A stretch of DNA of 64,000 nt from Candidatus Gastranaerophilaceae bacterium (GTDB lineage: Bacteria; Cyanobacteriota; Vampirovibrionia; Gastranaerophilales; Gastranaerophilaceae), in the NCBI GenBank assembly GCA_045638025.1, contig JAZUAO010000006.1, forward strand, positions 3,281-67,280, read 5' to 3'. Positions 12,222 to 19,952 of the stretch are shown here, piece after piece. Position numbers and translations under genes: made by a program. The stretch's first letter is position 1; each line of letters opens with the position of its first letter. The notes beneath the pieces were generated by a model, which was not told the DNA's origin, searched no databases, and saw nothing but the letters and a program-made list of their open reading frames with translations.

Positions 12222-13424
12222 TTATTTAACAAAAGATTTTATATATTCTACGTGTCTTGGAAGTAAATTTTTTAATGCATAATTTTCAACAATAGTGTTA
12301 CGAGCATTTTCTCTTTTTGGCTTCATTTCGTCTTTGTGTTCAAGTGCGTATTCTATTTTTTTAACCTGCTCATTAATATCGAAGAAGTTGAATAGTAAAC
12401 CATTTTTACCATCCTCAACAAATTCTCGGACAGGTTCCGTTGATGACGCGACAATAGGACAAGCACAAGCCATTGCATCCAGTAATGACCACGATACAAC
12501 GAATGGATAAGTTAAATACACGTGAGCAGAAGAAATTTGTAATAATTTCACATATTCATTAAGAGGCAAACCTCCAACAAAATGCACTCTATTCAAATCT
12601 AAATCCAGCTTTTCTAACATCATTTTCTTATACGTAGTATTCAAAAGTTGAGGCCCATAACAAACTCTATCTTCACCAGCTATTACAACTTGAAGATTTG
12701 GTCTTTTTTTCAAAAGGATTTCTACAGCTTGCATAAATTCAGGGAATCCTCTATAAGCTTCCATACCTCTAGTTGCGTACGTAACCACTTCGTCACTTTT
12801 AGTTAAAGTTAGGTTTTTATCAGGAATATAAAACTTAGCATTTTCATCAGGTTTACAAAAATCCGTATCTACACCATCATGCATAACCTTAATTTTATGA
12901 TGAAACTCTTTTGGAAATTGTTTTAATTGGAAATTAGTAGGGCACAAGCCTCCATCACAGCTGTACAAATCTATTAACAAATGAGCATTTTTACTTCTTA
13001 ATTTTGCCCAATCATCAATTTCAAGAGGTCTCCCATCAAAACCAACATCGCCATTATATCTATTATAAAACCATTCAAAATAACAAATTAAAGGGACATC
13101 AGGGAACACATCTTTCATAAACATTGTTTGCCCCCAAGTATGCCCATAAATAACATCTGGCTTAAAACCTTGATTTTTTAATTGAATAGCCGCTTCGGCA
13201 GCAGACTGTCCGTGAATAACACTTTCTTCGTAAAATCTTAGGTATCTATGGCAATTATCAGGAATTTCACGCTTGAGTTTATACTGCACTTTTATAACAT
13301 TTTCGGTTTGCGCATTATCATTATTTGTTATAAAAACGACTTTATTATTCGGATCCTTTGCTAATGCTGGAGCCAAATGCCTAAACTGAGCTGGGAAATT
13401 TCTGTGCAAAAACAATATGTTCAT
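12222..13424 (-). CDS. glycosyltransferase family 4 (GT-B, group 1)
   Basis: 400 aa. The C-terminal block SWSLLDAMACACPIVASSTEPVREFVEDGKNGLLF matches the GT4 E..EAMA.G.PVV....G..E.V.DG.NG motif. Only 33 nt separate it from the preceding gene and 45 nt from tolC. Confidence 0.8.
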   Translation of the reverse strand: MNILFLHRNFPAQFRHLAPALAKDPNNKVVFITNNDNAQTENVIKVQYKLKREIPDNCHRYLRFYEESVIHGQSAAEAAIQLKNQGFKPDVIYGHTWGQTMFMKDVFPDVPLICYFEWFYNRYNGDVGFDGRPLEIDDWAKLRSKNAHLLIDLYSCDGGLCPTNFQLKQFPKEFHHKIKVMHDGVDTDFCKPDENAKFYIPDKNLTLTKSDEVVTYATRGMEAYRGFPEFMQAVEILLKKRPNLQVVIAGEDRVCYGPQLLNTTYKKMMLEKLDLDLNRVHFVGGLPLNEYVKLLQISSAHVYLTYPFVVSWSLLDAMACACPIVASSTEPVREFVEDGKNGLLFNFFDINEQVKKIEYALEHKDEMKPKRENARNTIVENYALKNLLPRHVEYIKSFVK

Positions 13425-13457
13425 TACACAACATTATGACATAAAAATAAACTAATT

Positions 13458-14738
13458 TTAATTTTTAATCATATAAGATATTGCATTTTTTAAAGAATTG
13501 AATTTATCGCCGATATCACAAACACGTTCTGAGAAATTTCTTGACACAATTTCAAGATTTTCTGCTTTGAAAACAACAAGTTGTTTTTGTTCACGACCAA
13601 TAACTTTATTTATATCAGGCGCTAACCAAGCCATTATTCCGCCACTTTTTACACCTTTTGGAATATATGCAGCATCATAACCAGCTTTAGTAAATATTTT
13701 GTTCAGCATACATTCGACAATTGCATTTCGTTCACCATCTGGAATATTTTTAAAATCTTTCAAGTCTATTCTTTCTGATAAGAAATTATTCATTTTAGCG
13801 TACAAATCTTTATAAGTAGCCTCGTCTAAGTATGCAACTTTTGCACCTTTTTGCATTTTTACAGGAATAATATCACCGAACAATCCAGAGAAATATGAGG
13901 CAACTTTAGAATCAGGTGTTATATAAACTCCAGCACCTAATTCACGTGCATATTGGGCACTTTGACGACTTTTAAACGGAGTAAAGCCTTCTTTATAAAT
14001 ACCTCTGGTTTTCTTTGTTCCATGATAAAATATGCCATCTGCAGGTAATACATCCGATGGACATTCCTCAATATATCTGTTTATTTTAGATCGTTGTGCC
14101 ACATCAAACTTATAAAATTTTGAACGACCTGCATAATCAAACCCAAGATTTTGTCTTATCGTGTCTATAAGCTTTTCATTTTCTGAGGCAAATTGTTCAC
14201 CTAGTTTAAAATCATCAACTAGTTCTCCACCTTGCATTCTTTTTTCAACATCAGTAATATGTTGCTCATACTTACCTTTAAATTCTTTTACAGCTTTTAC
14301 AAGCTCAGAATCTTCTGGAATGTTATTTTTGCGGATATAATCGTCCAAGCTTGCAAGATCTTCGTGGAATTTCGTTTTATGTTTTGGCTTTTTGAATATA
14401 CCTAAAAGATCATCCAGTGAGGTTTTACCAGGTTTATTGAGTAAATCATCCGCCATTTTATTACCTCTAATGTAAACATCATCCATAATTTGAGATGAAC
14501 CTTTTAAAACTTTTGCAGCTTTTGCAGGATTACGTCCAATCATACAAGCTAAAGCTACCGCTGCCGTTGCTAAAGTTGATAAAGCTACAGCAATTCCAAC
14601 CTTTTTCTTTTTAGCTTTTTTATTTGATAATTCAACAGAATCTGGTTGTTGTTCTGGGAGCTTTTGCAACTTTTGAGAGGTGAACACTGGAGCATTGCAA
14701 CTTATTTTATTACTTGAAACGTTATCTATCGTAGACAT
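13458..14738 (-). CDS. membrane-anchored hypothetical protein with C-terminal PARP/ADP-ribosyltransferase-like motifs (tentative)
   Basis: Start moved to ATG 14738 (GGGGGA RBS). N-terminus is MSTIDNVSSNKISCNAPVFTSQ. A Lys-rich stretch plus one TM follows (KKAKKKKVGIAVALSTLATAAVALACMIG). The C-terminal domain has the ordered blocks IFYHGT, GAGVYITPD and KQLVVF. Confidence 0.5.
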   Translation of the reverse strand: MSTIDNVSSNKISCNAPVFTSQKLQKLPEQQPDSVELSNKKAKKKKVGIAVALSTLATAAVALACMIGRNPAKAAKVLKGSSQIMDDVYIRGNKMADDLLNKPGKTSLDDLLGIFKKPKHKTKFHEDLASLDDYIRKNNIPEDSELVKAVKEFKGKYEQHITDVEKRMQGGELVDDFKLGEQFASENEKLIDTIRQNLGFDYAGRSKFYKFDVAQRSKINRYIEECPSDVLPADGIFYHGTKKTRGIYKEGFTPFKSRQSAQYARELGAGVYITPDSKVASYFSGLFGDIIPVKMQKGAKVAYLDEATYKDLYAKMNNFLSERIDLKDFKNIPDGERNAIVECMLNKIFTKAGYDAAYIPKGVKSGGIMAWLAPDINKVIGREQKQLVVFKAENLEIVSRNFSERVCDIGDKFNSLKNAISYMIKN

Positions 14739-19236: not shown

Positions 19237-19352
19237 TTCTACCTCTCCACGAAAATTATATCATTTCAAAATTCGTCAATCATATTTTTTGCCAATATAT
19301 TAAGAATTCTTTAAAAAATTCCTTTACAAAAAATTAATGCTAATATAAGATT

Positions 19353-19952
19353 ATGCTTACACTTCAAGACGTACAAAAATACGAAATTTACTTAAAATAT
19401 TTGAACGAGAAATTAGGAAAGTTTTTCGAAGAACAAACACCATACATTTTTTGCAAAGAAGGATGTTCATATTGCTGTGAACAAGGTGAATATCCAATGT
19501 CTGAAGTTGAATTTGCATACCTAAATCTTGGAGCAAGAACTTTACCTCTTGAAATATTCAAACAAATAGATATAAATGTGGAAAAAATTAAAGCTGATAA
19601 ACTTAAACATGCTGGTGAAAAATTTTTACACGCGTGTCCTTTTTTAATAAATAATAGATGCGCTTTATACAAGTTTAGAGCTATAATTTGCAGATCTCAC
19701 GGCTTAGCATTCTTCAGTAAAGATGACAAAATTATGGTTCCTGAATGCGTAAATAAAGGATTAAATTATTCAAACGTATATGATTTTGAAACTAACACAA
19801 TATCTTCTGAAAAATACAAAGAAACAGGAAATACTCAAGAACCTTTAGCACACAATGTACGTCTAGGTTTTTTAGTTGATAACGATGCAACAAAAGAGCT
19901 TGGTTTAGAATTTGGCGAAATTAAACCTCTTATAGACTGGTTAATGCAATAA
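19353..19952 (+). CDS. YkgJ-family (CxxCxxCC) zinc/iron-chelating cysteine-cluster protein
   Basis: 199 aa with CKEGCSYCCEQG near the N-terminus plus a second Cys group (CPFLINNRCALY..AIICRSHG), typical of the UPF0153/YkgJ family. Confidence 0.65.
   Translation: MLTLQDVQKYEIYLKYLNEKLGKFFEEQTPYIFCKEGCSYCCEQGEYPMSEVEFAYLNLGARTLPLEIFKQIDINVEKIKADKLKHAGEKFLHACPFLINNRCALYKFRAIICRSHGLAFFSKDDKIMVPECVNKGLNYSNVYDFETNTISSEKYKETGNTQEPLAHNVRLGFLVDNDATKELGLEFGEIKPLIDWLMQ

Follow-up and report, generated by a model that had tools for sequence, protein, structure and literature searches.

N-terminally tagged modifying enzymes next to an RTX-type secretion module point to a lineage-specific regulon in Gastranaerophilales

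Does a gene that adjoins a secretion operon encode the cargo of that operon? The question is raised by seven genes, g1 to g7, found at positions 12222–19952 of a 64,000-nucleotide stretch of contig JAZUAO010000006.1 from a Candidatus Gastranaerophilaceae bacterium (assembly GCA_045638025.1; this whole stretch is hereafter the window), next to the tolC-hlyB-hlyD genes of a type I secretion system (T1SS). An earlier note tied these genes together only as a seven-gene island and missed two features that join g2–g6: a short peptide motif near the N-terminus of all five products, here called the tag, and a promoter-like element upstream of four of the five genes. We tentatively favour the reading that g2–g6, each transcribed on its own, belong to a regulon peculiar to Gastranaerophilales whose tagged enzymes, most of them protein-modifying, are probably exported by a route that is neither Sec nor T1SS. 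With the same reserve, we take the ‘island’ to be two unrelated things lying side by side, a glycosyltransferase/T1SS module and a group of regulon members.

All seven open reading frames (ORFs) claimed for this interval are present, and their refined starts, taken from an ORF listing, match the public gene calls. A family 4 glycosyltransferase (GT4) gene, g1 (12222–13424), is followed by g2 (13458–14738; 426 amino acids, aa), g3 (14819–15727), and g4 (15801–17063; 420 aa), all on the minus strand; g5 (17144–17734; 196 aa) lies on the plus strand, g6 (17731–19236) on the minus strand, and g7 (19353–19952) on the plus strand. Past g7, the window continues with g8, rpe, rnc, cdsA, frr, and pyrH. 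The stop codons of the convergent genes g5 and g6 overlap by 4 nt (17731–17734), leaving no space for a terminator, and this arrangement is kept in the closest relative, L009 (loci fetched from other genomes are numbered with the prefix L).

The tag has the core [IVL]-[ST]-F-[TKS]-[GS], and five of five products of g2–g6 carry x-x-F-T-[SG] near the N-terminus. The tag reads PVFTS in g2 (14676–14690, minus strand, with a second box, DSVELS, at 14625–14642), DVFTS in g3 (15551–15565, minus; DTVTFS in relatives), QTFTG in g4 (residues 8–12; 17028–17042, minus), IAFTS in g5 (residues 5–9; 17156–17170, plus), and ISFTS in g6 (19153–19167, minus). FT[SG] occurs nine times in the 19,481 aa encoded by the window, and five of these nine occurrences fall within the first 60 aa of the consecutive g2–g6 products. 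Similarly, using heuristic ORF starts (as in the promoter scans described below), we counted 339 non-identical ORFs in Gastranaerophilales-like loci of low GC content, and 49 of them bear the tag in their first 60 aa, versus 7.6 ± 2.7 expected and a maximum of 15 in 500 local shuffles of these first 60 residues. The first 60 aa contain the tag at 9.4 times the density of the remainder of the proteins. Loci from other phyla showed no enrichment (3/179 tagged ORFs, 4.4 expected). The tag is restricted to the Gastranaerophilales lineage, where it heads many proteins in every related locus, and the 49 tagged hits collapse to ~25 unrelated families.

Within families, the tag is the most conserved N-terminal feature. 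For instance, F7 and S9 are invariant in the g5 family at 35–68% identity, and 26 g4 family members at 23–51% identity all keep F10. The codons of the tag vary (TCT, AGT, TCA, and AGC for Ser; GGT, GGA, and GGC for Gly), which places the constraint on the peptide rather than on RNA; an RNA or DNA motif was rejected on this ground and because the position of the tag ranges from residue 5 to residue 57. The tag is often present in two or more copies per protein, and longer N-termini are bipartite, with M-[KR]-I-[NS]-x-I-x-F at the extreme N-terminus and (D)T[VF]xF[ST]G 20–40 residues on. Ahead of its transmembrane (TM) helix, the g2 family carries a D-x-V-E-[IL]-S box that is nearly invariant. 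The tag region is disordered in the AlphaFold2 (AF2) models of g3 and g5. A hydrophobic h-region in the first 44 aa is found in none of the 49 tagged proteins, versus 29% of the others, and tagged N-termini are enriched 1.7–1.9-fold in N, S, T, and Q and depleted to 0.4–0.55-fold in L, A, and E.

Several known signals were considered and rejected as identities of the tag. A prepilin signal (G|FTLxE) does not fit, with no hydrophobic segment following the motif, Gly rarely at position −1, and an h-region in 0/49 proteins. Nor does the tag show the consensus features of a lipobox, of a Tat signal, or of a double-glycine leader, and the peptidase-like domain of the adjacent HlyB has no catalytic Cys. 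An encapsulin cargo-loading peptide (xIGSLKG-like), which the tag may resemble, was set aside because the cargo families are too many. The literature that we searched contains no description of such a tag motif or regulon in Melainabacteria/Gastranaerophilales.

The promoter-like element shared by g2–g5 consists of a −35-like (T)RGCAAW followed ~19 nt downstream by a −10-like (G)TTTTAWA. It was traced from a 16-nt repeat (family D3) present in three intergenic regions of the island, and the window was scanned for it with the expression RGCAAW-N18-20-T[AT]TA.A. The copy upstream of g2 (GGCAAT-N19-TTTATA; 14766–14795, minus strand) is followed by the Shine–Dalgarno (SD) sequence GGGGGA and the ATG at 14738; the copy upstream of g3 has the same two boxes and spacing, GGCAAT-N19-TTTATA (15755–15784, minus). 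The g4 copy (17082–17109, minus) opens an SD-containing leader, and the box of the g5 copy (17110–17137, plus) lies 34 nt before the ATG at 17144, a leaderless spacing. In the divergent g4/g5 control region (17082–17137), the palindromic core TTTTGCTAGCAAAA yields an AGCAAA box on each strand. Throughout the window, the element precedes seven transcription units, namely g2, g3, g4, g5, and the units starting at 30060, 33321 (which includes a CheR-like gene), and 46654; seven of seven encode tagged proteins, and all other matches to the expression lie inside coding sequence.

This pairing of tag and element extends to relatives. In an unbiased k-mer test of 160-nt upstream regions, TAGCAAA ranked first, being present upstream of 20/71 tag genes versus 7/209 others (p = 2.6e-8). 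Of 27 genes, 9 have the box 33–35 nt from the ATG, and in the others it is 46–68 nt away and accompanied by an SD sequence; the shorter spacing is the distance expected if the box is a −35 element, in which case the mRNA would be leaderless. Upstream of g8 sits a sigma-70-like promoter (TTGACT-N18-TAAAAT), and we therefore regard the RGCAAW element as a distinct class; a generic scan for sigma-70 promoters and terminators stayed at background (68 sites versus 66.6 expected). A SigB/F/G-type group-3 sigma factor is encoded in L012 near a g5 homologue and a tagged CheR-like gene, and that such a factor drives this promoter is our conjecture. This CheR-like gene (L012 150–896), the second of its kind, shows a 35-nt, i.e., leaderless, promoter spacing.

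What do the tagged genes of the island encode? Six of the seven fold calls made in the earlier note are supported (GT4, ADP-ribosyltransferase (ART), GNAT, CheD-like, pyridoxal phosphate (PLP) decarboxylase, and Cys-cluster), while the seventh, a PAD/pentein fold for g4, is suggestive. The CheD-like (g5) and decarboxylase (g6) calls are firm, GNAT (g3) and ART (g2) probable, and pentein (g4) uncertain. As had been proposed, the products have divergent modifying-enzyme folds; they are confined to this lineage, and each enzyme adds a new, divergent member, found in this lineage only, to a superfamily already known.

In the g2 protein, the tag is followed by a stretch rich in Lys and by a TM helix; a conserved IGRNPAKAAKVLKG segment and a helical region come next, and an ART-PolyVal-like domain occupies the C-terminal end. 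The window protein matches PF18760 with E = 0.0025 and 19 bits (cut-off 31.2); the same profile is matched by 14/23 members of the g2 family (best 3.4e-6), mostly under the Pfam cut-off. Behind the TM helix, the family conserves YHGT and GAGVYxTPD...A..F, with H239 (of YHGT) and Y272 invariant and several candidate Glu residues; read by eye, YHGT and Y-x9-Y are motifs like those of H-Y-E-type ARTs. The profile that g2 family members match describes the ART-PolyVal enzymes of the polyvalent proteins of phages and conjugative elements. Unlike these, g2 is a stand-alone, TM-anchored, tagged, and chromosomal protein, with neither polyvalent architecture nor a mobile element. Searches of g2 and g4 against PDB chains, singly and as family profiles, gave no meaningful match, and g3, g4, and g5 had no match in Pfam or NCBIfam.

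In g3, a disordered N-terminal region of ~60 aa containing the tag precedes a probable GNAT-fold domain (AF2 pLDDT 80.5, ~90 in the core). All 50 Foldseek matches listed for this model are acyl-CoA enzymes of the GNAT superfamily, acetyltransferases except for four entries of the acyl-homoserine-lactone synthase BjaI; the probabilities are 0.89–1.0, but with E of ~2e-3 and target-normalised TM-scores of 0.45–0.5. A conserved GIGIRxHQLAVE in the g3 family occupies the position expected for the GNAT acyl-CoA loop-helix. The tag of g4 (residues 8–12) runs directly into a putative pentein domain. The g4 family comprises 199 clusters at 50% identity, with homologues found solely in Gastranaerophilales and in unnamed gut metagenome-assembled genomes, and its invariants are GGN, D164-x-H166-x-D168 (DxHIDLFxRPL), and C412 in the C-terminal GGIHC. 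Five family members weakly match PF04371 (PAD_porph; E 0.0027 to 0.2) over a shared profile region of ~154–247, and profile searches returned nothing significant, with the amidinotransferase SxtG at E = 2.1; these motifs and matches are suggestive of a pentein or guanidino-group-modifying enzyme. One of two tandem g4 paralogues in L005 (2053–3360) has KGIHS in place of GGIHC, a Cys-to-Ser change, and may be a pseudoenzyme.

For g5, the AF2 model (pLDDT 92) has CheD (2f9z_C) as its top match (E = 2.6e-6, probability 1.0; TM-score 0.49 normalised to the query and 0.61 to CheD), followed by NTAN1 (~2e-3), YfiH, and CNF1. The g5 family invariants are T49, D54-C55, and H70, and the Thr-x5-Cys...His spacing (T49, C55, H70) resembles the CheD triad. 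The model firmly predicts a deamidase-like fold of the CheD/NTAN1/CNF1 Cys-His type; there is no Pfam match between g5 and the CheD family proper (PF03975), and, unlike CheD, g5 is tagged, lies outside any che operon, and belongs to a family confined to this lineage. The g6 protein has an N-terminal extension of ~115 aa, containing the tag and a predicted helix, ahead of a group II PLP decarboxylase domain with the SLHK lysine motif. It exceeds the PF00282 cut-off (32.8 bits versus 27), matches the histidine decarboxylase model NF002748 (6.6e-64, 216 bits) under the equivalog cut-off of 305, and finds histidine and serine decarboxylases in the PDB (1e-37 to 1e-30; 7erv at 5.9e-37). The untagged g7 is a CxxCxxCC (YkgJ-type) protein with a marginal match to PF03692 (23.6 bits versus a cut-off of 23).

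Tagged genes elsewhere in the window and in relatives encode further unrelated enzymes. A CHAP-like amidase (30060–30956, minus strand; promoter element 30926–30956; tag PTFSS at 30798–30812) has its Cys in GRCAAHV and its His in YGHVEI and no signal peptide; instead, its N-terminus consists of ~140 aa of low complexity rich in F, S, N, P, Q, and Y, with a poly-Ser run and the tag-like boxes PTFSS, SIFSFG, TNFSY, NPFNFMG, and QLSFNS. The unit at 33253–35917 (plus strand; promoter element 33253–33282) begins with a 529-aa protein (start 33321; tag LSFKP at 33348–33362), possibly a membrane or pore protein judging from its Gly/Ala-rich hydrophobic segments, and continues with the CheR-like methyltransferase (34913–35917, plus; tag VSFSG at 35003–35017). 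This unit lies just upstream of fliJ, a FliK-like gene, and a flgE/F/G-family gene (37056–39709). The third unit (46594–49461, plus; gene start 46654; promoter element 46594–46621; tag ISFKS at 46672–46686) encodes a starch/glycogen synthase of the GlgA-like kind, extended at its N-terminus by ~300 aa that include the tag, a TM helix, and a coiled coil. The GH77 4-alpha-glucanotransferase encoded in L015 (11472–13316) is tagged as well, and tagged glycogen enzymes recall the secreted glycogen enzymes of Chlamydia. In a UshA-type 5'-nucleotidase, the tag sits exactly at the usual place of the signal peptide.

The tagged repertoire of relatives also includes tandem families. Nine tandem paralogues of ~260 aa in L047 (11692–18442) start with MKINPIQFNFIQ and carry DTVSFSG ~30 residues later. 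The surrounding ~17 kb of this locus (774–18442) contain only tagged, Pfam-less genes, including a g2 homologue, with the exception of a GT17 gene and a hydrophobic 392-aa protein. In the distant relative L006 (7516–13183), a g4 homologue lies between two MsbA-like ABC exporter genes, with another tagged gene, for 140 aa, following, and the homologous ABC exporter of the window (31301–33142) is also situated between tagged genes (30060 and 33321); the recurrence may be a coincidence or a hint at the machinery.

How would such a set of proteins work? On the reading we favour, an alternative sigma factor, of the group-3 SigB/F/G type, would switch the regulon on, and g2, g3, g4, and g5 would each be transcribed from their own promoter copy, with leaderless mRNA in many family members. 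A common machinery would read the tag and deliver the proteins to a shared destination, most likely outside the cytoplasm, via a Sec- and T1SS-independent route. The leading candidate for this machinery is the flagellar type III export apparatus, in a model analogous to the sigma-28-controlled, flagellum-secreted Fed (flagellar co-expressed determinant) and Cia proteins of Campylobacter. Export is favoured because of the missing h-region, the polar composition, the presence of two normally extracytoplasmic families (the nucleotidase and the amidase), and an effector-type enzyme repertoire, and an effector-like reading of g2–g6 is the most plausible.

N-termini rich in N, S, T, and Q and poor in L, A, and E are characteristic of type III secretion signals, and the tag, with its polar surroundings and no h-region in any of the 49 proteins, fits the N-terminal, non-hydrophobic signal type of proteins exported by the type III secretion system (T3SS) of flagella. 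The window encodes FliJ and an FlgE/F/G-family protein of the flagellar export and hook apparatus. The first box of bipartite N-termini (MRINxI..., MKINPIQF...) may echo flagellin N-termini (MRINHN, MRINTN), and the core (ISFSG, STFSG) those of FlgK and FliD. In Campylobacter, non-flagellar proteins are exported by the flagellar T3SS through N-terminal signals under the late flagellar sigma factor (PMC8306008 section 6.3; PMC2764114).

Several observations weigh against this reading. At the level of the regulon, most loci were fetched via tag-bearing genes, which biases the tag frequencies upward, so that the tagged share of 5–15% of genes is a biased estimate; g6 is tagged, yet has at best a degenerate promoter copy; by eye, the element resembles neither the sigma-28 nor the sigma-54 consensus; and the pentein assignment of g4 is below significance in every profile search. 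At the level of export, the fetched loci contained neither a flagellin nor a late flagellar gene of this lineage, which leaves the likeness of the first box to flagellin, FlgK, and FliD N-termini tentative. Only 5–10 residues separate the tag from the fold in g4 and g5, a short distance for a type III signal. The tagged GlgA-like synthase, GH77 enzyme, and CheR-like methyltransferase belong to classically cytoplasmic families, and a TM helix follows the tag in g2, in the GlgA-like protein, and in a 354-aa protein of L013.

A further version of the export model, which we consider rather unlikely, holds that Gastranaerophilales possess their own undescribed two-box N-terminal export or targeting signal, together with a dedicated promoter class, and that these mark some 5–10% of the proteome, a large ‘effectome’ for a new machinery or recognition mode. 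The families of this effectome include ART, deamidase, pentein, GNAT, CHAP, nucleotidase, and glycogen enzymes.

Could the enzymes instead act inside the cell that makes them? In this scenario, which we judge unlikely, the tag would be a docking or sorting peptide for a storage granule, a polar or membrane structure, or a compartment, or else a conditional degron, and the tagged genes would form a SigF/SigB-type developmental or stress regulon. Tagged enzymes that use cytoplasmic nucleotide-sugar, S-adenosylmethionine, or nicotinamide adenine dinucleotide substrates (GlgA-like, GH77, CheR-like, ART) would be at home there, as would g4 and g5, whose tag is placed directly on a folded domain. 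The lineage encodes a SigB/F/G-type sigma factor, and the frequent occurrence of two or more tag copies would suit avidity binding to a multivalent partner. However, the UshA-type 5'-nucleotidase and the CHAP-like amidase, normally extracytoplasmic, carry the tag in place of a signal peptide, the polar N-termini, rich in N, S, T, and Q and poor in Leu and acidic residues, look like secretion signals, and a candidate gene for a compartment shell or scaffold was seen in none of the loci.

A second alternative looks to metabolism: the g6 decarboxylase, an agmatine-deiminase-like g4, an amidase g5, and a SpeG-like g3 would make or modify a polyamine or biogenic amine. The g6 protein is indeed a group II PLP decarboxylase, with histidine and serine decarboxylases as its near relatives, the g4 family has the weak PAD_porph matches described above, and SpeG is among the GNAT fold matches of g3. 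Against this, no equivalog cut-off is reached for agmatine deiminase, for arginine or ornithine decarboxylase, or for histidine decarboxylase (216 versus 305 bits); g4 homologues occur in six genomes with no g3, g5, or g6 nearby, g5 occurs without g6, and g3 is found elsewhere. Each gene has its own promoter-like element (at best degenerate in g6), and a single tag on ~25 unrelated families reaches beyond any one pathway. A joint small-molecule pathway is thus very unlikely, and the genes are not the ordinary polyamine pathway that the earlier note had named as an example, with neither an agmatine deiminase nor an arginine decarboxylase equivalog and with g4 and g6 unlinked in relatives.

We return to the T1SS, whose genes at 1581–12176 are a standard RTX (repeats-in-toxin)-type example. 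A giant RTX-repeat protein (1581–7388, plus strand; PF00353 at 8e-175 in 26 stretches, plus BapA_N) is followed on the minus strand by hlyD (7513–8556; Pfam HlyD_3), hlyB (8568–10709; ABC_membrane/ABC_tran/Peptidase_C39), and tolC (10722–12176; OEP), and the giant protein is the likely T1SS substrate. The HlyB N-terminal C39-like domain (CLD) has no catalytic Cys, the expected position reading NTGLISLEVV by eye, and for this reason HlyB is predicted to be of the non-proteolytic RTX/CLD type, for substrates with C-terminal signals, rather than a bacteriocin-processing peptidase-containing ABC transporter (PCAT).

That g2–g5, and possibly g6, are effectors secreted by and co-transcribed with this adjacent T1SS is a tempting idea. 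The genes g4, g3, g2, GT4, tolC, hlyB, and hlyD are co-directional with gaps of 33–80 bp, the scan detected no terminator-like hairpin before hlyD (one lies 3' of hlyD, at 7407–7432 on the minus strand), and the GT4/T1SS module of the relatives L017 and L018 is bordered by other tagged genes. The co-direction and the short minus-strand gaps pointed out earlier hold (measured as 45, 33, ~80, and 73 bp), but the single operon does not: g2, g3, and g4 have their own promoter-like elements in these short gaps and are therefore not simply the front of a tolC-hlyB-hlyD operon, although read-through from g4–g2 into the tolC genes may occur. The products of g2–g6 contain no RTX repeats (PF00353), no other repeat match, and no other T1SS-type feature; their conserved C-termini are family-specific (HPxGF, SQPIxL, GGIHC, DExxW), and the signal that they have in common is N-terminal rather than C-terminal. 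HlyB, lacking the catalytic Cys, is not a double-glycine leader peptidase.

Comparison of gene neighbourhoods gives the same answer. This T1SS is found in none of the loci with g2, g3, g4, or g5 homologues, and the g4 homologue loci of six genomes have neither another island gene nor the T1SS nearby. L009, whose housekeeping proteins are 80–94% identical to those of the window, retains g5-g6-g7-g8-rpe-rnc-cdsA but has different genes at the place of g4, g3, g2, GT4, and the T1SS. The more distant relative L010 keeps g5, g8, and rpe; g6 and g7, both present in L009, are both missing from it, and homologues of g2 and g3 occur in yet other gene contexts. Synteny of the seven genes, which had been suggested as a check, is thus not conserved even in the closest relative; gene content beside rpe varies, and the seven genes do not form a conserved system, since relatives keep only parts of the set and GT4 travels with the T1SS. 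The proposed T1SS link of g2–g6 is not supported by these results, and the T1SS-effector reading is largely refuted; we rate it as highly improbable. Genes for Fic, an integrase fragment, and flavodoxin lie upstream in L010. Consistent with variable, effector-rich regions, what is encoded near tagged genes in L010 (3932–6465), L048 (11098–12009), and L015 (8226–8873) includes proteins with a Fic domain (in one case together with RhuM), a piece of a phage integrase, and a protein with ankyrin repeats.

The GT4 gene, by contrast, does belong with the T1SS. The g1 product matches PF12000 (1.8e-59, 200.7 bits) and PF00534 (74.5 bits), both over the Pfam cut-offs, and has neither an N-terminal tag nor an RGCAAW promoter. 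In more than 20 of 30 GT4 loci (L017–L020, L026–L042), from close to distant taxa, GT4 adjoins HlyB/HlyD, with GT4 identities in these T1SS-linked loci ranging from 75% in close relatives down to 45% in distant organisms of 54% GC; L042 adds an RTX-like protein beside the GT4 and T1SS genes. Homologues of g2–g6 were found in 0/30 of these loci. Because its adjacency to HlyB/HlyD recurs across distant bacteria without g2–g6, GT4 is an accessory gene of the RTX-type T1SS module, separate from the tagged g2–g6 set, in place of the island membership it had been given before. The pairing suggests glycosylation of the T1SS substrate or a role in glycoconjugate export; it uncovers a conserved partnership, across phyla, between PF12000-type GT4s and RTX-type T1SSs.

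A highly improbable alternative takes the tagged proteins for interbacterial polymorphic toxins or bacteriocins whose import would rely on a TonB-box-like DT[VI]xF[ST] motif, after the manner of group B colicins. Folds of the toxin type (ART, deamidase, CHAP amidase) do stand behind disordered N-termini, and GDTVTFS and QDTVSFSG resemble the TonB box DTITVTA, but there are no adjacent immunity-sized ORFs (gaps ≤116 bp), profile searches found no receptor-binding or trafficking domains (PAAR, LXG, Rhs, MIX), most tags do not have the acidic-Thr start of a TonB box, and the tagged families include glycogen enzymes and methyltransferases.

Nor does the region look like a mobile element. GC content stays at ~32% along the whole window, with no compositional break at the island, and searches of the island for tRNA genes, Rfam families, and repeats found no tRNA gene, no flanking repeat, and no integration hallmark. 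PADLOC and PHROGs gave no link to defence or phage functions, except for a weak match of the g6 PLP fold to the cysteine desulfurases DndA/SspA. The absence of immunity, phage, and mobility genes remarked on earlier is borne out by these searches and by the short gaps.

Among known systems, the closest parallel to the regulon we favour is found in Campylobacter jejuni, where FedA-D, CiaI/CiaC, and FspA belong to the sigma-28 late flagellar regulon and are secreted via the flagellar T3SS. Like the tagged proteins, these are unrelated non-flagellar proteins with an N-terminal signal, no Sec signal, and an alternative-sigma promoter (PMC8306008, PMC2764114); the N-terminal signals of the Fed and Cia proteins are uncleaved (PMC8306008 section 6.3; PMC2764114). 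Unlike them, the Gastranaerophilales tag is a sharply conserved motif, something unusual for a T3SS signal, the promoter bears no likeness by eye to those of sigma-28, and the set is far larger, with ~25 families in ~350 kb of low-GC sequence. The C-terminal-domain proteins of the type IX secretion system (T9SS) of Bacteroidota and the Dot/Icm E-block effectors and PmrA regulon of Legionella offer a second parallel, with one lineage-wide short signal on many unrelated enzymes, partial co-regulation, and clustering in variable islands. Whereas these have C-terminal signals and known machineries, the tag is N-terminal and has only a candidate machinery. With RTX-type T1SS operons, g2–g6 share neither features nor genomic linkage. 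In summary, the T1SS part is already known, and a tag-plus-promoter regulon is a known kind of arrangement, but this tag and this promoter were not found in the literature searched.

The locus therefore corrects a tempting misreading: to adjoin a T1SS is not to be the cargo of that T1SS. The Gastranaerophilales, non-photosynthetic relatives of cyanobacteria, are widespread inhabitants of human and animal guts with essentially no cultured members, and, to our knowledge, almost nothing is known of how they interact with hosts or neighbouring microbes. The tag and promoter motif would turn hundreds of ‘hypothetical proteins’ of this lineage into a defined, searchable set, rich in protein-modifying enzymes for ADP-ribosylation, deamidation, deimination-type chemistry, and acylation; genes for Fic-domain proteins lie close by. 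Should the tag prove to be an export signal, it would be among the few sharply conserved N-terminal non-Sec signals known, and metaproteomics, reporter assays, and the search for effectors in these bacteria would gain a direct handle.

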